From assembly GCF_003018255.1 (NCBI RefSeq), contig NZ_CP027440.1: a stretch of DNA of 64,000 nt; one strand, given 5' to 3'. Shown piece by piece: positions 13 to 63,553 of the stretch (the stretch's first letter is position 1; each line of letters opens with the position of its first letter). The position numbers were made by a program, and so were the translations under genes. Source of the DNA: Escherichia coli. Its GTDB lineage: Bacteria > Pseudomonadota > Gammaproteobacteria > Enterobacterales > Enterobacteriaceae. The notes beneath the pieces are model-generated. The model saw only the letters and a list, made by a program, of their open reading frames with translations, was not told the origin of the DNA and searched no databases.

Positions 13-753
13 TTAGAACATTACCTTATGACCGTACTGCTCAAGAATGCCTTTCACGCGTTCCATGGTCTCTTTCTTCGGTGGTTTAACACCATCAAGT
101 TTGTATTCTTCACCCATCGCCACCCATTTGTGTTTGCCCAGTTCGTGGTAGGGGAGAAGCTCGATTTTCTCAACGTTGCCCATATCACGGGTAAATTCAC
201 CGAGGCGATGCGCTGAATCGTCATCGTCAGACCAGCCTGGGACAACAACGTAGCGGATCCACACCTTCACATTTTTGTTCGCCAGATATTTGGCGAACTC
301 CAGCGTGCGGTGGTTGGAAACTCCAACCAGATTTTGGTGGATCTCGTCGTTCATCTGTTTGAGATCGAGCATTACCAGGTCGGTTACTTCCAGCAGTTCA
401 TCAATCACCGGATCGTAACGACGAACAAAACCGTTGGTGTCCAGACAGGTATGAATGCCTTCTTTTTTGCAGGCGCGGAACCAGTCACGAACAAACTCAG
501 CTTGCAGGATTGCTTCACCGCCGGATGCGGTAACGCCGCCGCCGGAAGCGTTCATAAAGTGGCGATAGGTCACCACCTCTCTCATTAAATCTTCAACGGT
601 AACTTCTTTACCGCCATGCGTGTCCCAGGTGTCGCGGTTATGACAATACAGGCAGCGCATCAGGCAGCCCTGGAAAAAGGTGATAAAGCGAATACCCGGA
701 CCGTCTACGGTTCCACAGGATTCAAAGGAGTGAATGCGACCAATAACTGACAT
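13..753 (-). CDS. pflA: pyruvate formate-lyase activating enzyme (radical SAM glycyl-radical activase)
   Basis: ORF 13..780 (-); translation matches PflA with radical-SAM Cys cluster (CLMRCLYC); start moved to internal ATG (MSVIGRIH...) at 751-753, giving 246 aa; stop TAA at 13-15. Confidence 0.93.
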
Positions 754-875
754 TGCGGTGTTTCTCCAGATGTGGCCCATCTGAGGCCGTGTTGGTGCGC
801 AGCTCGAAGGCTACGTCGAGTCTGTTTTGGCAGTCACCTTAAAGTATAGATAGCTGACAAAAAAGGCTCTCGTGC

Positions 876-902
876 TAAAAAAGGCCCCACTTTCGTGGAG
901 CC
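876..902 (-). terminator. putative Rho-independent terminator downstream of pflB
   Basis: On the minus strand a GC-rich imperfect hairpin (ggctccacgaaagtggggcc) is followed by a run of six U; lies ~45 nt after the pflB stop. Confidence 0.55.
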
Positions 903-944
903 TTTATTGTACGCTTTTTACTGTACGATTTCAGTCAAATCTAA

Positions 945-3227
945 TTACATAGATTGAGTGAAGGTACGAGTAATAACGTCCTGCTGCTGTTCTTTAGTCA
1001 GCGAGTTGAAACGTACTGCGTAGCCAGATACACGGATGGTCAGCTGCGGATATTTTTCCGGGTTTTCCATCGCGTCGAGCAGCATTTCACGGTTCATCAC
1101 GTTAACGTTCAGGTGCTGACCACCTTCGATGGACGCTTCGTGGTGGAAGTAACCATCCATCAGACCAGCCAGGTTGGTCTTACGAACTTCGTCGTCTTTA
1201 CCCAGTGCGTTCGGAACGATAGAGAAGGTGTAGGAGATACCATCTTTAGCGTAAGCAAATGGCAGTTTAGCAACGGAAGTCAGAGAGGCTACTGCACCTT
1301 TCTGGTCACGACCGTGCATCGGGTTAGCACCCGGTCCGAACGGCGCGCCAGCACGACGACCGTCTGGGGTGTTACCAGTTTTCTTACCATACACAACGTT
1401 AGAAGTGATGGTCAGAACAGACTGAGTCGGGATAGCGTCACGGTAGGTGTGCAGTTTCTGAATTTTCTTCATGAAACGTTCTACCAGGTCAACAGCCAGG
1501 TCATCTACACGCGGATCGTTGTTACCAAACTGCGGGTATTCGCCTTCGATTTCGAAGTCGATAGCCAGACCGTCTTCGTCACGAATCGGTTTAACTTTCG
1601 CATATTTGATTGCAGACAGGGAGTCAGCAGCAACGGACAGACCAGCGATACCACACGCCATGGTGCGGATAACGTCACGGTCGTGCAGCGCCATCAGAGA
1701 GGCTTCGTAGCTGTACTTGTCGTGCATGTAGTGGATGATGTTCAGTGCAGTGATGTACTGTTTAGCCAGCCAGTCCATGAAGTGATCCATGCGCTCCATC
1801 ACTTCATCGTAGTTCAGGAGATCGCCTTTGATCGGCTCAGACTTCGGACCAACCTGCATTTTCAGTTTTTCGTCAACGCCGCCGTTGATTGCGTACAGCA
1901 TGGTTTTCGCCAGGTTTGCACGCGCACCGAAGAACTGCATTTGTTTACCAACGATCATCGGGCTTACGCAGCAAGCGATAGCGTAGTCATCGTTGTTGAA
2001 GTCCGGACGCATCAGGTCATCGTTCTCATACTGCAGAGAAGAGGTGTCGATGGACACTTTAGCAGCGAATTTCTTGAAGTTCAGCGGCAGTTTTTCGGAC
2101 CACAGAATGGTCATGTTCGGTTCCGGAGACGGACCCATGGTGTACAGGGTGTTCAGGAAACGGAAGCTGTTTTTGGTAACCAGGGTACGACCGTCGAGGC
2201 CCATACCACCGATAGATTCGGTTGCCCAGATCGGGTCGCCAGAGAACAGTTCATCGTATTCCGGAGTACGCAGGAAGCGAACCATACGCAGTTTCATGAC
2301 CAGGTGGTCAACCATTTCCTGCGCTTCTTGTTCGGTGATCTTGCCAGCTTTCAGGTCACGTTCGATGTACACATCCAGGAAGGTGGAGGTACGACCGAAG
2401 GACATTGCAGCACCGTTCTGAGACTTAACAGCAGCCAGGTAGCCGAAGTAAGTCCACTGGATAGCTTCCTGAGCGTTGGTAGCCGGACCAGAGATGTCGT
2501 AGCCGTATTTCGCAGCCATTTCTTTCATCTGACCCAGAGCGCGGTGCTGTTCAGCGATTTCTTCGCGCAGACGGATAGTCTGTTCCAGGTTTACGCCGTT
2601 TTCCAGATCAGCCTGCAGAGAGGTGAACTGAGCGTATTTGTCTTTCATCAGATAGTCGATACCGTACAGCGCAACGCGACGGTAGTCACCGATGATACGA
2701 CCACGGCCATAAGCATCTGGCAGACCGGTCAGAACACCGGATTTACGGCAACGCAGGATGTCCGGAGTGTAAACGTCGAACACGCCCTGGTTGTGAGTTT
2801 TACGGTATTCAGTGAAGATTTTTTTGATCATCGGGTCCAGTTCGCGGTTGTACGCTTTGCAGGAACCTTCGATCATTTTGATACCACCGAACGGGATAAG
2901 AGCACGTTTCAGCGGAGCTTCAGTCTGCAGACCAACAACTTTTTCCAACGCTTTGTTGATGTAGCCAGCGTCGTGAGAGGTGATGGTGGAAGCAACAGCG
3001 GTGTCAAAGTCAACTGGCGCGTGAGTGCGGTTTTCCAGTTTAACGCCTTCCATTACTTTGTCCCACAGGGTGGTGGTCGCTTCAGTAGCGCCAGCCAGGA
3101 AGGACTCGTCACCCTCGTACGGAGTGTAGTTTTTCTGAATGAAGTCACGGACGTTTACTTCATTCTGCCAGTCACCTTTGGTAAAACCTTCCCAGGCTGT
3201 GGCTAACTTTTCATTAAGCTCGGACAT
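945..3227 (-). CDS. pflB: pyruvate formate-lyase (formate C-acetyltransferase 1)
   Basis: 760-aa ORF; translation matches PflB over full length including the C-terminal glycyl-radical region. Confidence 0.97.
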
Positions 3228-30490: not shown

Positions 30491-30502
30491 GTGCACAGAA
30501 AA

Positions 30503-30521
30503 CCCCCAGCTAGGCTGGGGG
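30503..30521 (+). repeat. IS200 left-end subterminal hairpin
   Basis: Perfect 8-bp GC stem cccccagc-tag-gctggggg. Confidence 0.6.
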
Positions 30522-30558
30522 TTCCGGAAAGCTTTCAGCTTTGAGCCAGTTATTAAAA

Positions 30559-30627
30559 CCCCTTTTGATTTGTTAAAACACCTTGCGGTCTGGCAACTGC
30601 AAGTGTCAAACAAGAAATCAAAAGGGG
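30559..30627 (+). promoter_or_regulatory. long-range stem sequestering the tnpA ribosome-binding site
   Basis: ccccttttgatt (30559-30570) is exactly complementary to aatcaaaagggg (30616-30627), which contains the Shine-Dalgarno immediately upstream of tnpA ATG 30634; matches the known translational occlusion in IS200. Confidence 0.55.
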
Positions 30628-30633
30628 GTCCCA

Positions 30634-31092
30634 ATGGGGAACGAAAAGAGCTTAGCGCACACCCGATGGAACTGTAAATATCACATAGTTTTTGCGCCAA
30701 AATACCGAAGACAAGTGTTCTACAGAGAGAAGCGTAGAGCAATAGGCAGTATTTTGAGAAAGCTGTGTGAGTGGAAAAGCGTACGGATTCTTGAAGCTGA
30801 ATGCTGTGCAGATCATATCCATATGCTTGTGGAGATCCCGCCCAAAATGAGTGTATCCGGCTTTATGGGATATCTGAAAGGGAAAAGCAGTCTGATGCTT
30901 TACGAGCAGTTTGGTGATTTGAAATTCAAATACAGGAACAGAGAGTTCTGGTGCAGAGGGTACTACGTCGATACGGTGGGTAAGAACACGGCGAAGATAC
31001 AGGATTACATAAAGCACCAGCTTGAAGAGGATAAAATGGGAGAGCAGTTATCGATTCCCTATCCGGGCAGCCCGTTTACGGGCCGTAAGTAA
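30634..31092 (+). CDS. tnpA: IS200/IS605-family transposase TnpA (HUH Y1 single-strand transposase)
   Basis: ORF 30583..31092; start moved to ATG 30634 (MGNEKSLAHTRWNCKYHIVFAPKYRR...) giving 152 aa; HUH motif within DHIHMLVEIP; near-identical to Salmonella IS200 TnpA as recalled. Confidence 0.95.
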   Translation: MGNEKSLAHTRWNCKYHIVFAPKYRRQVFYREKRRAIGSILRKLCEWKSVRILEAECCADHIHMLVEIPPKMSVSGFMGYLKGKSSLMLYEQFGDLKFKYRNREFWCRGYYVDTVGKNTAKIQDYIKHQLEEDKMGEQLSIPYPGSPFTGRK

Positions 31093-36105: not shown

Positions 36106-37194
36106 TTAGAACTGGTAAACGATACCCACAGCAACGGTGTCGTCAGAACCTACGCCCAGTTTGTTGTCAGAATCGATCTGGTTGATGATGTAGTCAACAT
36201 AGGTGGACATGTTTTTGTTGAAGTAGTAGGTTGCGCCCACTTCAAAGTAGTTAACCAGATCAACATCACCGATACCTTCTACGTCTTTCGCTTTAGATTT
36301 GGTGTAAGCGATGGACGGACGCAGACCGAAATCGAACTGGTATTGCGCAACTAACAGAACGTCTTGCGTTTTGTTGGCGAAGCCGCTGATGTTTGTAAAT
36401 TTATTAGTGATCGGCGTAGCGTTACGGGTTTCACCGTAGTTCGCTGCCAGGTAGATGTTGTTCGCGTCATACTTCAGACCAGTAGCCCACTGTTCAGCTT
36501 TTTTACCGTTGCCAAGAGGTTGAGCTTCTTGCAGGTTGGTACGGTCAGCGGCGCCATAAGCACCAACGATACCAAAGCCTTCGTATTCGTAGCTGATAGA
36601 ACCGCCAACACCGTCGCCGTTAGAGCGGCGTGCAGTGTCACGCTCGTTTTTACCCAGGTACTGAACAGCGAAGTTCAGGCCATCAACCAGACCAAAGAAG
36701 TTGGAGTTACGATAGGTAGCAACGCCGCCAACACGACCAACGAAGAAGTCATCGCTGTATGCCGTGTCACCGCCAAACTCAGGCAGCATATCGGTGTAAC
36801 CCAGTGCATCATAAACCACACCGTAGTTACGGCCGTAATCGAAAGAACCAACGTCAGCGTATTTAAGACCCGCGAATGCCAGACGCGTTTTGTTACCAGT
36901 TTGAGCGTCAGCGCCTTCAGAGTTGTTACCCTGGAAGTTATATTCCCACTGACCATAACCGGTCAGATCGGAATTGATTTGAGTTTCCCCTTTAAAACCA
37001 AGACGGGCATAGGTCATGTCACCATTGCCACCGTAACTGTTTTCACCGTTACCCTTGGAGAAATAATGCAGACCGACAGCTTTACCGTACAGATCTACTT
37101 TGTTGCCATCTTTGTTATAGATTTCTGCAGCGTTTGCAGTACCTGCTACTAACAGAGCAGGGACGATCACTGCCAGAATATTGCGCTTCATCAT
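36106..37194 (-). CDS. ompF: outer membrane porin F
   Basis: 362-aa ORF; signal peptide and C-terminal ...VGIVYQF; matches OmpF. Confidence 0.98.
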
Positions 37195-43462: not shown

Positions 43463-43609
43463 GCCGGATGCGACGCTTGACGCGTCTTATCAGGCCTACA
43501 AGTCCGTTGAAAATGCTGGTTTTGTAGGCTGGATAAGGCGTTCACGCCGCATCCGGCAGCCGTGCCCAAATGCCTGATGCGACGCTTGACGCGTCTTATC
43601 AGGCCTACA
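43463..43609. repeat. REP elements forming a BIME (three copies in alternating orientation)
   Basis: gccggatgcgacgcttgacgcgtcttatcaggcctaca (43463-43500), inverted copy 43524-43560, near-identical copy 43571-43609; a partial fourth copy follows at 43631-43648; lies between convergent pepN and ssuB. Confidence 0.85.
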
Positions 43610-47887: not shown

Positions 47888-48123
47888 ACTCTCTCCTTAT
47901 AACCAATTGTTCTTGTTTTGTTAACATTGATAACAATTCGGTCAGTCTGACAGAGGGCGTCCGCGAGTCGAAATGATTTATCTGAGGAAGAAAAGCCAAA
48001 AAAAGCATAAAAAAAGCGCAATAAGAAAACGTTTGCTATTTATTGCCGCAGGTCAATTCCCTTTTGGTCCGAACTCGCACATAATACGCCCCCGGTTTGC
48101 ACACCGGGAATCCAGGAGAGTTC
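47888..48123. promoter_or_regulatory. divergent ssuE / pyrD promoter region
   Basis: 236-bp spacer between divergently transcribed ssuE and pyrD; individual operators not resolved by eye. Confidence 0.4.
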
Positions 48124-49134
48124 ATGTACTACCCCTTCGTTCGTAAAGCCCTTTTCCAGCTCGATCCAGAGCGCGCTCATGAGTTTACTTTTCAGCAATT
48201 ACGCCGTATTACCGGAACGCCGTTTGAAGCACTGGTGCGGCAGAAAGTGCCTGCGAAACCTGTTAACTGCATGGGCCTGACGTTTAAAAATCCGCTTGGT
48301 CTGGCAGCCGGTCTTGATAAAGACGGGGAGTGCATTGACGCGTTAGGCGCGATGGGATTTGGATCGATCGAGATCGGTACCGTCACGCCACGTCCCCAGC
48401 CAGGTAATGACAAGCCGCGTCTCTTTCGTCTGGTAGATGCCGAAGGTTTGATCAACCGTATGGGCTTTAATAATCTTGGCGTTGATAACCTCGTAGAGAA
48501 CGTAAAAAAAGCCCATTATGACGGCGTTCTGGGTATTAACATCGGCAAAAATAAAGATACGCCGGTGGAGCAGGGTAAAGATGACTATCTGATTTGTATG
48601 GAAAAAATCTATGCCTATGCGGGATATATCGCCATCAATATTTCATCGCCAAATACCCCAGGATTACGCACACTGCAATATGGCGAAGCGCTGGATGATC
48701 TCTTAACCGCGATTAAAAATAAGCAAAATGATTTGCAAGCGATGCACCATAAATATGTGCCGATCGCAGTGAAGATCGCGCCGGATCTTTCTGAAGAAGA
48801 ATTGATCCAGGTTGCCGATAGTTTAGTTCGCCATAATATTGATGGCGTGATTGCAACCAATACCACGCTCGATCGTTCTCTGGTTCAGGGAATGAAAAAT
48901 TGTGATCAAACCGGTGGCTTAAGTGGTCGTCCGCTTCAGTTAAAAAGCACAGAAATTATTCGCCGCTTGTCACAGGAATTAAACGGTCGCTTACCGATCA
49001 TCGGTGTTGGCGGCATTGATTCGGTTATCGCTGCGCGTGAAAAGATTGCTGCGGGGGCCTCACTGGTGCAAATTTATTCTGGTTTTATTTTTAAAGGTCC
49101 GCCGCTGATTAAAGAAATCGTTACCCATATCTAA
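48124..49134 (+). CDS. pyrD: dihydroorotate dehydrogenase (quinone)
   Basis: ORF 48097..49134; start moved to ATG 48124 ([10 protein letters not shown]...) preceded by CAGGAGAG; 336 aa. Confidence 0.96.
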
Positions 49135-53319: not shown

Positions 53320-55227
53320 ATGTCATTAATCAGTATGCATGGCGCATGGCTGTCGTTCAGCGACGCGCCGCTTCTCGATAACGCAGAACTGCATATCGAA
53401 GATAACGAACGTGTTTGTCTGGTGGGCCGCAACGGCGCAGGCAAATCGACGTTAATGAAAATCCTCAACCGTGAACAAGGGCTGGATGACGGTCGCATTA
53501 TTTACGAGCAAGATTTGATTGTAGCTCGTCTGCAACAGGATCCGCCGCGTAACGTTGAGGGGAGTGTTTATGATTTCGTTGCCGAAGGCATTGAAGAACA
53601 AGCGGAATACCTGAAACGCTATCACGATATTTCGCGCCTGGTGATGAACGACCCGAGCGAGAAAAATCTCAACGAACTGGCGAAGGTTCAGGAACAGTTG
53701 GATCACCACAACCTGTGGCAGCTGGAAAACCGCATTAACGAAGTGCTGGCGCAACTGGGGTTAGATCCTAACGTTGCGCTGTCGTCGCTTTCCGGCGGTT
53801 GGTTGCGTAAAGCGGCATTAGGACGCGCGCTGGTGAGCAATCCGCGCGTATTGCTGCTCGACGAACCGACTAACCACCTGGATATCGAAACCATCGACTG
53901 GCTGGAAGGATTCCTTAAAACCTTCAATGGGACGATTATTTTCATCTCCCACGACCGTTCGTTTATCCGCAATATGGCGACGCGTATTGTTGATCTCGAT
54001 CGCGGCAAACTTGTGACCTATCCAGGGAATTACGACCAGTACCTGCTGGAAAAAGAAGAAGCCCTGCGCGTGGAGGAGCTGCAAAATGCCGAGTTCGATC
54101 GCAAACTGGCGCAGGAAGAAGTGTGGATCCGTCAGGGGATCAAAGCACGCCGTACCCGTAATGAAGGCCGCGTACGCGCCCTGAAAGCAATGCGTCGCGA
54201 GCGTGGCGAACGTCGCGAAGTGATGGGTACCGCAAAAATGCAGGTGGAAGAAGCCAGCCGCTCCGGTAAGATCGTTTTCGAAATGGAAGACGTTTGCTAC
54301 CAGGTTGACGGTAAGCAACTGGTGAAAGATTTTTCTGCCCAGGTTCTACGTGGCGACAAAATTGCCCTGATTGGTCCGAATGGATGCGGCAAAACCACGC
54401 TGCTGAAACTGATGCTCGGTCAGCTTCAGGCGGACAGCGGGCGTATTCACGTTGGCACCAAACTGGAAGTGGCTTATTTCGATCAGCACCGTGCGGAACT
54501 GGATCCCGATAAAACGGTGATGGATAACCTTGCTGAAGGTAAGCAAGAGGTGATGGTTAACGGCAAGCCACGTCATGTTTTGGGCTATTTGCAGGACTTC
54601 CTGTTCCATCCGAAACGGGCGATGACGCCGGTACGTGCGCTTTCTGGCGGTGAGCGTAACCGCTTGCTGTTGGCGCGTTTGTTCCTCAAACCAAGCAACT
54701 TATTGATTCTTGACGAACCGACCAACGATCTTGATGTTGAAACGCTGGAACTGCTGGAAGAACTGATCGACAGCTACCAGGGCACGGTATTGCTGGTGAG
54801 CCACGATCGTCAGTTTGTCGATAACACCGTTACAGAATGCTGGATCTTCGAAGGCGGCGGTAAAATTGGTCGTTATGTCGGCGGTTATCATGATGCCCGT
54901 GGTCAGCAAGAACAGTATGTGGCGCTCAAACAGCCTGCGGTGAAAAAAATCGAAGAAGCCGCCGCGCCAAAAGCAGAAACTGTAAAACGCAGCAGTAGCA
55001 AACTAAGCTATAAATTGCAGCGCGAACTGGAGCAGCTACCGCAATTGCTCGAAGATCTGGAGGCGAAGCTGGAAGCCCTACAGACGCAGGTGGCGGATGC
55101 TTCCTTCTTCAGTCAGCCGCATGAGCAGACGCAAAAAGTGCTCGCCGATATGGCTGCTGCAGAGCAGGAGCTGGAGCAAGCCTTTGAACGCTGGGAGTAT
55201 CTTGAAGCGTTAAAAAATGGTGGCTGA
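53320..55227 (+). CDS. uup: ABC-F family ATPase Uup
   Basis: 635-aa ORF with two ABC domains (GRNGAGKST and GPNGCGKTT) and C-terminal coiled-coil; matches Uup. Confidence 0.96.
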   Translation: MSLISMHGAWLSFSDAPLLDNAELHIEDNERVCLVGRNGAGKSTLMKILNREQGLDDGRIIYEQDLIVARLQQDPPRNVEGSVYDFVAEGIEEQAEYLKRYHDISRLVMNDPSEKNLNELAKVQEQLDHHNLWQLENRINEVLAQLGLDPNVALSSLSGGWLRKAALGRALVSNPRVLLLDEPTNHLDIETIDWLEGFLKTFNGTIIFISHDRSFIRNMATRIVDLDRGKLVTYPGNYDQYLLEKEEALRVEELQNAEFDRKLAQEEVWIRQGIKARRTRNEGRVRALKAMRRERGERREVMGTAKMQVEEASRSGKIVFEMEDVCYQVDGKQLVKDFSAQVLRGDKIALIGPNGCGKTTLLKLMLGQLQADSGRIHVGTKLEVAYFDQHRAELDPDKTVMDNLAEGKQEVMVNGKPRHVLGYLQDFLFHPKRAMTPVRALSGGERNRLLLARLFLKPSNLLILDEPTNDLDVETLELLEELIDSYQGTVLLVSHDRQFVDNTVTECWIFEGGGKIGRYVGGYHDARGQQEQYVALKQPAVKKIEEAAAPKAETVKRSSSKLSYKLQRELEQLPQLLEDLEAKLEALQTQVADASFFSQPHEQTQKVLADMAAAEQELEQAFERWEYLEALKNGG

Positions 55228-59864: not shown

Positions 59865-59900
59865 AGCTAACACGTGTACGCTGAACAAGTCCGATCAGTT
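59865..59900 (-). promoter_or_regulatory. fabA operator region: FabR palindrome and FadR site
   Basis: Minus-strand AGCGTACACGTGTTAGCT (FabR-type palindrome, plus 59865-59882) adjacent to AACTGATCGGACTTGTT (FadR-like, plus 59884-59900); the FadR site overlaps the last codons of ycbZ. Confidence 0.6.
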
Positions 59901-61655
59901 CGGAATAAACCAGTTCAGCCAACGCAATGGCCATGGAAAACGGTGACGTCCTTCCTGTTGCGATGCTTGCGCGATACGTTCCTGGATGGTTTGCATCAGC
60001 GTCGTTTGGCCTTCGCCATCCCACACCAGATTTAATAATAACGGCAGTGCGTCAGTCACATCGTCTACTGCCCAGATGGTGAATTTGCCTTCTTCTACCG
60101 CTTTCACCAGTTCACTGTGAAGACTTAAATGGCGAATGTTAGCAGTGGGGATAATGACACCTTGTTTCCCGGTTAACTCACGTTGCTGGCAAATAGCAAA
60201 GAAGCCTTCGATTTTCTCATTTAAACCACCGACCGGCTGGGCACGACCGAACTGATCGACTGAACCTGTGATAGCGATACTCTGATTCACCGGCACATCG
60301 GCGAGGGCGCTTATCAGGGCGCAGAGTTCAGCCATCGAGGCACTATCGCCATCCACTTCACTGTATGACTGCTCAAATGTCAGCGATGCTGAGAAGGGGA
60401 TCTGTTGCTCAAGCTGTAGTTCCGACATCAGGAACGCCTGCATGATCATCATCCCTTTCGCATGGATATTGCCGCCAAGCTCCGCTTTGCGTTCGATGTC
60501 GGTGAACTCACCATCGCCAATATGCACAACGCAGCTAATGCGAGAAGGTTCGCCAAAAGCGCGTGGATGACCCGGAAATTCAATGACCGAAAGGGCGTTA
60601 ATTTGCCCGATGCGTTCGCCTTCGGTTTCAATCAGGATTTGCTCCTGAAGAATCTCATCCTGCATGCGTTCAGCGAGGAAACCTTCACGCCATTCACGCT
60701 GCTGCAGCATTAAGTTTAGCTGCTCGCCGGAGAAGGTGTCGCCATCGCACAGGGAGGCGACCTCTTTACACTGGCGGAGGATCCACTGCGGGCTAAGCGG
60801 AAGTGTTTCTTGTTCACCGGTGTAGCGGGCTGCTTCGCGGATAAGTACCGGCCAGGCATCCGCTCCCGGTGCAGGTAAGTGATTATGTCTTGCGGTCAAT
60901 GTTACCCAGCGACACCACTGGCTTACTGACTCCGCATCGACAATCTGCAGAGTATCTTCAAATTCGCTATAAATAGCCTGCTCTGAAAGCTCTGGTTCCA
61001 TCTCCTGGAAATCAGCCAATGATTCGCGTTCGCCTACCAGAATGACTTTCAGCTTCAATGGCATCGAAGGCACAGAGACGGGGAGAGGGCGCGACTCATC
61101 AAACGCAACCCAGTCAAAACGCTCGCGGTTAACGATATTTTTCAGCCGCATCCACAGCAGAGGTTGCGCCAGCAGTGTACGCAAAGAGATGATGAGAATA
61201 CCGCCATTTGCCTGATGCACCAGACCTGGCTGCAGGGTAATGTCGCCATTAAACTGGCGCAGGCAGCCAAAGAGTTGTTCCGCTTCTACCCAGTCGGCAG
61301 CGACAACTTGCGTTAAAGTCGCAAAATTATCATCTGCACTCACTGCGTTACGTAAGCGGATGGTGTGCCCGGAAACCTCATAGTGACCGCCCACCAGTTG
61401 GCCTGCATCGCTTTGTAGCGCACGCGCGGCATCGGCAATAAGATTCAGATACTCAGACTCTTCCGGGGCCTTCGCCAGCATAAAAGAGGAGGATGCTCGC
61501 GTATGCAGCAACTGCTCCAGCGCAAATTGCAGTCGCGGTTGAGTATCACTGAATAAAGGATCGTTTTCGTCAATCAAATGTGGCTGAGCAAATATTTCCT
61601 GATAGCTATCGGTATCAGGAACCAGGTCACGCCATGCAAGTTTCGTAATGGTCAA
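59895..61655 (-). CDS. ycbZ: Lon-like protease (LonH family)
   Basis: 586-aa ORF; matches YcbZ. Confidence 0.92.
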
Positions 61656-61840: not shown

Positions 61841-62293
61841 ATGAAATATCAACAACTTGAAAATCTTGAAAGCGGTTGGAAATGGAAGTATCTGGTGAAG
61901 AAGCACCGCGAAGGGGAGTTAATCACCCGTTACATAGAAGCCAGTGCCGCCCAGGAAGCCGTCGATGTGTTGCTCTCGCTGGAAAATGAACCCGTGCTGG
62001 TAAATGGCTGGATTGACAAGCATATGAATCCGGAACTGGTCAATCGCATGAAGCAAACCATTCGGGCCAGACGGAAGCGCCATTTTAATGCGGAACATCA
62101 GCATACGCGCAAAAAATCGATCGATCTGGAATTTATTGTCTGGCAACGTCTGGCTGGTCTTGCGCAGCGTCGCGGTAAAACGCTTTCTGAAACGATTGTT
62201 CAGCTGATTGAAGATGCGGAAAACAAAGAGAAATACGCGAATAAAATGTCTTCTTTGAAGCAGGATCTGCAGGCATTGCTGGGTAAGGAATAA
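61841..62293 (+). CDS. matP: macrodomain Ter organiser MatP
   Basis: 150-aa ORF; matches MatP (YcbG). Confidence 0.95.
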
Positions 62294-62325: not shown

Positions 62326-62355
62326 AAAAAAAACCCCGCAGCAGCGGGGTTTTTT
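62326..62355. terminator. bidirectional Rho-independent terminator (matP on +, ompA on -)
   Basis: Hairpin ccccgc-agca-gcgggg flanked by A8 and T6. Confidence 0.8.
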
Positions 62356-62368
62356 ACCAGACGAGAAC

Positions 62369-63421
62369 TTAAGCCTGCGGCTGAGTTACAACGTCTTTGA
62401 TGCCTTTAACTTCGATCTCTACGCGACGATCCGGAGCCAGGCAATCGATCAGTGCAGCACGCTGTTTCACGTTGTCACAGGTGTTGCCAGTAACCGGGTT
62501 GGATTCGCCCATACCACGTGCGGAGATTTTGTCTGCCGGGATACCTTTAGAGATCAGGTAATCAACAACGGACTGAGCACGACGCTCGGACAGAGCCTGG
62601 TTATAAGCGTCAGAACCGATGCGGTCAGTGTAACCCAGAACAACTACGGAACCGTCTTTCGGATCCAGGTTGCTCAGCTGGCTGTACAGCTGATCCAGAG
62701 CAGCCTGACCTTCCGGTTTCAGGGTTGCTTTGTTGAAGGTGAACAGAACGTCAGACTTCAGAGTGAAGTGCTTGGTCTGTACTTCCGGTGCCGGAGCTGG
62801 AGCCGGAGCAACTACTGGAGCTGCTTCGCCCTGACCGAAACGGTAGGAAACACCCAGGCTCAGCATGCCGTTGTCCGGACGAGTGCCGATGGTGTGTGCA
62901 TCACCGATGTTGTTGGTCCACTGGTATTCCAGACGGGTAGCGATTTCAGGAGTGATCGCATACTCAACACCGCCAGCGAAGACCGGAGAAACGCCGGTGT
63001 CGTGGTCTTTAAAGGATGCGCCACCAGGTACGTTAGCCTTGGTGTCTGCACGCCATACCATACCACCCAGACGAGTGTAGATGTCCAGATCGTCAGTGAT
63101 TGGGTAACCCAGTTTAGCGGTCAGCTGAACGCCCTGAGCTTTGTATGCGCCGTTGATGTTGTCGCCTTTGTACGGCATACGACCTAACCAGTCGTAACCC
63201 ATTTCAAAGCCAACATACGGGTTAACCTGGTAACCACCAAAAGCACCTGCACCCAGTTGGTTTTCGTGGGTCGGACCATTGTTAGGAATAAAACCAGTGT
63301 CATGGTACTGGGACCAGCCCAGTTTAGCACCAGTGTACCAGGTGTTATCTTTCGGAGCGGCCTGCGCTACGGTAGCGAAACCAGCCAGTGCCACTGCAAT
63401 CGCGATAGCTGTCTTTTTCAT
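62369..63421 (-). CDS. ompA: outer membrane protein A (variant allele, 350 aa)
   Basis: ORF 62369..63508; known N-terminus [21 protein letters not shown] at ATG 63419-63421; beta-barrel plus C-terminal OmpA-like domain; 4 aa longer than the K-12 protein as recalled. Confidence 0.96.
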
Positions 63422-63553
63422 TTTTTGCGCCTCGTTATCATCCAAAATACGCCATGAATATCTCCAACGAGATAACACGGTTAAATCCTTCACCGGGGAT
63501 CTGCTCAATATTAACTCTACCGATATCTTCGGCTTATGCCGAGCACCCCTGGC
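63422..63553 (-). promoter_or_regulatory. ompA long 5' UTR (inferred P2 start near 63553)
   Basis: Minus-strand sequence beginning GCCAGGGGTGCTCGGCATAAGCCGAAGATATCGG matches the recalled 5' end of the ~133-nt ompA leader, a known MicA target region. Confidence 0.5.

Follow-up and report, generated by a model that had tools for sequence, protein, structure and literature searches.

The gene for the outer membrane protein OmpA (ompA) was analysed in a stretch of Escherichia coli DNA of 64,000 nucleotides (assembly GCF_003018255.1, contig NZ_CP027440.1; this whole stretch is called the window below). It is very probably an ordinary chromosomal ompA whose product belongs to one of the protein's two major natural isoforms. 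Earlier publications already cover this allele, including how frequent it is, what its structure looks like and how it affects recognition by phages and antibodies; it is a common allele, not a peculiarity of the strain. A modest addition of the present analysis is the polarity obtained from outgroups, in which the K-12 form comes out as the odd one out. A second, minor addition is an apparent recombination patch of less than 200 bp that swaps a receptor loop between near-clonal genomes.

The ompA gene and its differences from K-12

The gene and the features around it are as follows.

62369..63421, minus strand: ompA coding sequence, 350 codons plus stop, with the ATG at 63421 and a product of 350 aa
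63359..63421, minus strand: signal peptide (aa 1-21), the same as in K-12; the mature N-terminus APKDNTWY agrees with the PDB barrel constructs
61841..62293, plus strand: matP, neighbour of ompA
59895..61655, minus strand: ycbZ, neighbour of ompA
beyond 63777, minus strand: start of sulA (partial gene), neighbour of ompA
62326..62355, between the convergent matP and ompA: hairpin CCCCGC-AGCA-GCGGGG lying between an A-run and a T-run, read from the sequence

Membership in the OmpA family extends over the whole protein. In a phmmer comparison with the PDB, entry 3nb3 (E. coli OmpA) was matched at full length (1-350 against 1-346, E = 1.8e-225). The N-terminal barrel of eight strands with its four external loops is present (residues 22-196 match 1bxw and 1qjp). 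A Pro-rich linker of 14 aa precedes the C-terminal OmpA-like peptidoglycan-binding domain, for which three solved structures of OmpA C-terminal domains (2mqe, 4erh and 4rha) were matched by residues 204-350 (E = 1e-84 to 1e-90). The gene order sulA - ompA - matP - ycbZ matches the annotation in BW25113, SA186 and JNE23-011, and "porin OmpA" is annotated at the homologous position in every E. coli record inspected. The GC-rich hairpin at 62326..62355 looks like a candidate bidirectional intrinsic terminator shared by matP and ompA. The open reading frame listed on the minus strand at 62369..63508 holds ompA together with an upstream TTG extension; the extended frame reaching 63508 was rejected as a mechanical artefact of listing, the biological start being the ATG at 63421. 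Antisense frames overlapping ompA (e.g., 62768..63187, plus strand) were also rejected, as mechanical listing artefacts inside a conserved and highly expressed gene.

Residue differences were taken from an alignment of the window gene with the retrieved ompA sequence of K-12 BW25113. The proteins have 350 and 346 aa, respectively, and 337 of the 346 aligned residues are identical. The differences amount to nine amino acid substitutions, one indel of four codons and 23 synonymous codon differences, and alignments to PDB chains show the same OmpA differences as the BW25113 alignment. The changes in the protein are located as follows.

63284..63286, minus strand: loop 1, P46 (mature 25), FIPNNGPT against FINNNGPT in K-12; CCT against AAC, with all three bases different
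63155..63163, minus strand: loop 2, D87-N88-I89 (mature 66-68) against S-V-E in K-12 (YKGSVENGAY); the codons differ at 2, 3 and 3 bases
63005..63037, minus strand: loop 3, residues 129-139, 11 aa against S-N-V-Y-G-K-N in K-12, from the alignment
62738..62740, minus strand: T228 (mature 203+4; Liao position 203, N/T), LFTFNK against LFNFNK, C-terminal domain, from the alignment
62594..62596, minus strand: A276 (Liao position 251, G/A), NQALSERR against NQGLSERR, C-terminal domain, from the alignment

Relative to K-12 TKSNVYG----KNHD, loop 3 carries S129A, Y132P and a change of N to D139, plus the four extra residues GASF, whose codons are placed by the alignment at G134-F137 (63011..63022). 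The initial annotation had claimed loop substitutions and a loop 3 longer by 4 aa, giving 350 rather than 346 aa, in the span 62999..63292, which runs from the first base of F44 (63292) to the last base of D141 (62999). Every difference that it listed was found against BW25113, none of these residues being of the K-12 type, and its claim of further substitutions outside the span was confirmed in the same alignment by N228T and G276A. At the position equivalent to A276, G was found in all 11 non-window sequences aligned (K-12 and 10 others). The locus, signal peptide, barrel strands, loop 4 and linker are common to the window and K-12 OmpA (P0A910 type; PDB 1BXW, 1QJP and 9FZC; "OmpA-short"; Liao I, alpha), as is nearly all of the C-terminal domain.

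Within the barrel, the seven substitutions and the indel are all located at mature positions 25, 66-68 and 108-118. Along the DNA, segments of 150 nt at about 62873-63400 hold 9-23 differences from K-12, against 0-7, mostly 0-3, in the remainder of the 4.6 kb compared. This clustering of the K-12 differences at the loop segment is far beyond chance. The earlier statement that the changes are concentrated in exposed loops agrees with the published hypervariable regions of loops 1-3, within which all of the barrel changes lie.

Allele identity and probable exchange among E. coli lineages

Over barrel residues 21-195, the window protein and PDB chain 9fzd_A show 100% identity; chain 9fzc_A is the K-12 form. 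In entry 9FZD, the reference sequence of OmpA-long was crystallised as a complex with nanobody Nb39 (Commun Biol 2025, PMC12259851). The OmpA sequences of ~85,000 E. coli genomes were shown to split into two isoforms, OmpA-long and OmpA-short, and the crystallised sequences are the commonest of each (PMC12259851). The 9FZD construct, whose barrel is without any difference from the window, stops before the linker and the C-terminal domain, so T228 and A276 lie beyond its coverage. In the scheme of Liao, the outer loops of the window have pattern III (P25 in loop 1, DNI in loop 2, an 11-aa loop 3 and H in loop 4) and the C-terminal pattern is delta (A175 in the linker, T203 and A251; GEAAPVV, LFTFNK and NQALSERR), delta being defined as A,T,A (PMC5413513). 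The allele (III, delta) is Nielsen's C1; it was found in 41 of the 400 isolates of Liao's phylotype-trimmed set, and C1 was reported by Nielsen to be enriched in NMEC (PMC9560509). At the protein level, the window OmpA does not differ from (III, delta)/C1. The window protein is also RefSeq WP_001346420.1, the product of strain SA186, whose ompA differs from that of the window by one synonymous base at 62948. The same accession is carried by the O25b:H4-ST131 strain 5506, and the exact 350-aa sequence is recorded as "MULTISPECIES: porin OmpA [Escherichia]" on at least 1000 contigs.

The frequency of the allele was surveyed in 5426 complete E. coli genomes. ompA matches were found in all but one of them, and 969 have a match of at least 99% identity over the full length of the gene. 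For loop 3, a 65-nt query centred on the insertion was used, with a threshold of at least 95% identity over at least 80% of its length. Long loop-3 DNA was found in 2063 of the 5426 genomes (38%), which places the long form and the other form (62%) at intermediate frequencies. At 99% identity or above, the query was found in 711 genomes, and the matches listed in that band are 100% identical. No nucleotide-identical ompA was found among the 5426 genomes (best match 99.9%), because the window combines two synonymous variants that are each found elsewhere in the table of variable sites. Five ompA matches are on plasmids. In the 4,668-bp E. coli plasmid NZ_CP097216.1, 344 nt at 635..978 are 90.7% identical to ompA nt 199-554 (barrel loops 2-3), and this ompA-like stretch is annotated as "outer membrane beta-barrel protein."

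The table of variable sites shows ompA to be a mosaic, and comparison with near-clonal relatives points to how one part of it arose. The first 25 kb of the window are ~100.0% identical to E. coli JNE23-011, and 22 SNPs were found in the last 25 kb (ungapped block), six of them in ompA (63082, 63080, 63037, 63013, 63012 and 62900). The three closest backgrounds (JNE23-011, 2017.09.02CC and DETEC-S792), which are 99.1-100% identical to the window in the parts compared, all encode WP_001563012.1. This protein is a long isoform with P25, DNI, T228 and A276, as in the window, but it has V114, S129 and T137 (loop 3 SNVPGGASTKD) in place of I114, A129 and F137.

63012..63082, minus strand: short patch relative to the near-clonal relatives, with I114 against V, A129 against S and F137 against T; 5 SNPs, plus one SNP at 62900

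Judged from these sequences, loop 3 of the window, which is of the ST131/CFT073 type, was probably brought in by a very short homologous-recombination patch. A patch of ~70-180 bp would have replaced the SNVPGGASTKD loop 3 of the lineage with the 11-aa form of the window. We infer that the window was the recipient, and not its relatives, the direction being taken from three related genomes only. More generally, short-tract homologous recombination very probably shuffles ompA haplotypes and their sub-variants between E. coli lineages. The loop-3 patch matches the published mosaic evolution of ompA hypervariable regions 1-3. In passages of their preprint, Chen et al. describe mosaic evolution of fhuA, lamB, ompA, ompC and ompF, in which the tips of loops 1-3 form hypervariable regions 1-3, the strands are conserved, and the trees of the alleles conflict with the phylogeny of the strains (bioRxiv 10.1101/2021.09.21.461324). 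The comparison of the window with JNE23-011 provides a concrete example of such evolution.

Several side observations were made in the same comparisons. In the APEC O78:H4 strain E14033, whose flanking 25 kb share ~99.0% identity with the window, OmpA is short, with SVK in loop 2 and SNFDGKN in loop 3; therefore, closely similar flanks can carry quite different ompA alleles. Thirteen of the 22 SNPs relative to JNE23-011 lie within 454 bp of uup (53799..54252), which is a putative second short recombination patch beside that in ompA. The window also contains ompF (~36106..37194, minus strand; mapped from the JNE23-011 annotation and approximate to a base or two), another porin for which mosaic loop recombination is reported in passages of the same preprint (10.1101/2021.09.21.461324). 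An IS200/IS605-family tnpA open reading frame is located at 30583..31092 between mukB and ldtD, and the collinear JNE23-011 record annotates it as IS200C. Ahead of this frame, the Rfam Hfq-binding sRNA STnc490 is matched at 30501..30624 (146 bits). Rfam gathering-threshold matches were also obtained for naRNA4 (nucleoid-associated ncRNA, REP-derived element; 43527..43605, 82 bits) and, upstream of pyrD, for the PyrD leader (48056..48129, 98 bits).

Recognition of the loops by phages and antibodies

The four loops constitute the sole surface-exposed face of OmpA, and changes at P25, DNI and the longer loop 3 alter the shape and charge that face its ligands, with the barrel and the periplasmic peptidoglycan-binding domain remaining conserved. 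The receptor-binding proteins of phages (T-even Gp38, Sf6), antibodies and nanobodies are among these ligands; colicins, F TraN and host proteins probably are as well. The description of the loops in the initial annotation as phage-receptor and immune-recognition surfaces is upheld by their phage-resistance sites, by Gp38 host-range data and by nanobody data. Mature position 25 is the polymorphic loop-1 site of Liao (PMC5413513). K-12 missense mutants at OmpA sites 25, 70 and 110 resist phages K3 and Ox2, and the polymorphic positions of the window (25, 66-68 and 108-118) are at these sites or adjoin them. Eight natural OmpA variants from ECOR strains have been produced in an MG1655 ompA deletion strain, and each of them supported infection by broad-range phages with type-1 Gp38. 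Infection by narrow-range phages with type-2 Gp38 was restricted to variants 1, 3 and 4, a difference credited by the authors to loop 2a in combination with loops 3a/3b. E89 in loop 2 is mentioned in a passage on interactions in which variants 1, 3 and 4 are compared, and this suggests loop 2a to be the SVE form. With I89 and a long loop 3, the window OmpA would be resistant to type-2 Gp38 phages. The "NI" residues of loop 2 were also reported to affect entry of phage Sf6 (Porcek and Parent 2015, cited in a passage of 10.1101/2021.09.21.461324).

Binding by nanobodies Nb01 and Nb39 is strictly isoform-specific and involves contacts with each of the four loops (PMC12259851). Because the window barrel is identical to the chain co-crystallised with Nb39, the window OmpA is expected to bind Nb39 and not Nb01. 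OmpA alleles have further been shown to change zeta potential (surface charge), hydrophobicity, biofilm formation and sensitivity to neutrophil elastase (PMC9560509). The F-plasmid protein TraN reads OmpA loops, its known site being G154 in the invariant loop 4. For strain typing, the strain is OmpA-long. Narrow-range OmpA-dependent T-even phages isolated on K-12 probably do not infect it, and the isoform is of relevance to the choice of phages for therapy and to OmpA-based diagnostics and vaccines.

Age, polarity and maintenance of the two loop haplotypes

The differences from K-12 are concentrated in one segment of the gene.

62987..63301, minus strand: segment of high divergence that covers aa 41-145, with loops 1-3 and their connecting strands, differing at 9.6% of nucleotides from K-12 and at 2.5% from E. 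albertii

Between the window and K-12, Nei-Gojobori estimates are dS 0.285 and dN 0.056 for codons 41-145, against dS 0.068 and dN 0.004 for codons 146-350. Each of the six substituted loop codons other than D139 differs from K-12 by 2-3 bases, and the loop 1-3 segment contains 13 synonymous codon changes. The raised dS therefore points to an old haplotype and not to a cluster of recent amino acid changes.

Outgroups were taken from species-representative genomes as the 80 OmpA loci most similar to the long query among 600 candidates, a set that is biased toward long-like sequences and from which the E. coli type genome and E. fergusonii are absent. The same loop motifs as in the window recur in E. 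albertii, Citrobacter amalonaticus, Leclercia, C. freundii and Salmonella enterica arizonae/diarizonae. E. albertii, C. amalonaticus and a Leclercia MAG have exactly the 11-aa loop-3 motif of the window, C. freundii and S. enterica arizonae (SNTPGGASYKD) have nearly the same one, and P46 and DNI are present in both Salmonella subspecies. All three of the non-coli Escherichia representatives recovered have the long form. Loop 3 varies in length among genera, with short and unrelated sequences in Enterobacter and several Citrobacter species, so ancestry is not readable from length alone. Nucleotide distances are given below for the loop 1-3 segment and for the rest of the gene.

Window against E. 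albertii: loop 1-3 segment 2.5%, rest of the gene 3.6-4.2%
Window against C. amalonaticus: loop 1-3 segment 5.1%, rest of the gene 8-13%
Window against S. enterica arizonae: loop 1-3 segment 7.0%, rest of the gene 11-12%
Window against K-12: loop 1-3 segment 9.6%, rest of the gene 1.2-2.2%

The loop 1-3 segment of K-12 is 7.9-12.9% from each of the Escherichia, Salmonella and Citrobacter sequences compared. The sequence comparisons favour the long form as the ancestral-like one, shared across species, and the short form of K-12 as a divergent outlier. The differences from K-12 very probably mark an old, deeply diverged loop 1-3 haplotype, with a long form that is common, in almost unchanged form, to E. 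albertii, Citrobacter and Salmonella. The terms "longer loop 3" and "substitutions" hold only with K-12 as the baseline, and the outgroups indicate that K-12 is the divergent form. In the text passages of Chen et al. (10.1101/2021.09.21.461324), alleles are not polarised by outgroups and neither "Salmonella" nor "ancest" occurs; outgroups were used here.

What maintains the two forms? Our reading, offered tentatively, is that the long/short dimorphism may be a trans-species polymorphism whose age equals or exceeds that of the genus Escherichia, in which the long form is ancestral, the K-12 loops are a derived and deeply divergent haplotype, balancing selection by phages or immunity keeps this haplotype at intermediate frequency, and patches of 100-200 bp are exchanged, as between the near-clonal genomes compared here. 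Ligand-driven selection (frequency-dependent, balancing) is a plausible cause of the maintenance because the forms have intermediate frequencies, the divergence is confined to the loops and the motifs are shared across species. It is unlikely that the dimorphism is instead neutral, two old haplotypes drifting and recombining in weakly constrained loops without selection by ligands. Neutrality would agree with the pairwise dN/dS of ~0.2 in the loop segment (window against K-12), which gives no direct signal of positive selection, with the poor match found by Liao et al. between sequence variation and several measured phenotypes (PMC9560509), and with the infection by broad-range Gp38 phages of strains carrying each variant tested. 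However, the divergence is limited to the loop-coding segment, with the flanks and the rest of the gene at 1-2%. Neither of the two forms is rare, the long motif has been kept across species, and narrow-range phages and nanobodies discriminate between the variants. The same pattern is described for other phage-receptor porins in passages of Chen et al. (10.1101/2021.09.21.461324).

The polarity itself could be read the other way, with K-12-short as the original form and the long allele acquired horizontally by E. coli, the donor being Citrobacter, Salmonella or E. albertii. Such a transfer would account for a loop 1-3 segment nearer to E. albertii and C. amalonaticus than to K-12, and short-tract recombination is active at the ompA locus. 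This origin is nevertheless improbable. The K-12 segment is about equidistant from all sequences compared, as a lone divergent haplotype would be and not a replaced native form; the non-coli Escherichia representatives recovered are all long; and the remainder of the window allele, beyond loops 1-3, is of the usual E. coli kind.

A further reading would have the loop changes arise recently and adaptively, as point mutations and an insertion acquired by the strain or within its immediate lineage, e.g., under pressure from phages or the immune system. This would fit changes that sit on phage-receptor surfaces and an ompA without a nucleotide-identical counterpart among complete genomes, but such an origin is highly improbable and was rejected on the population and outgroup data: at least 1000 contigs and ST131 have the identical protein, the long loop 3 is found in more than a third of complete genomes, the loop codons are 2-3 bases away from K-12 amid synonymous changes and a high dS, identical motifs exist in other species, and what is unique at the nucleotide level is just two known synonymous variants in a new combination. 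A sequencing artefact was also excluded, the identical protein being present in many independent complete genomes.
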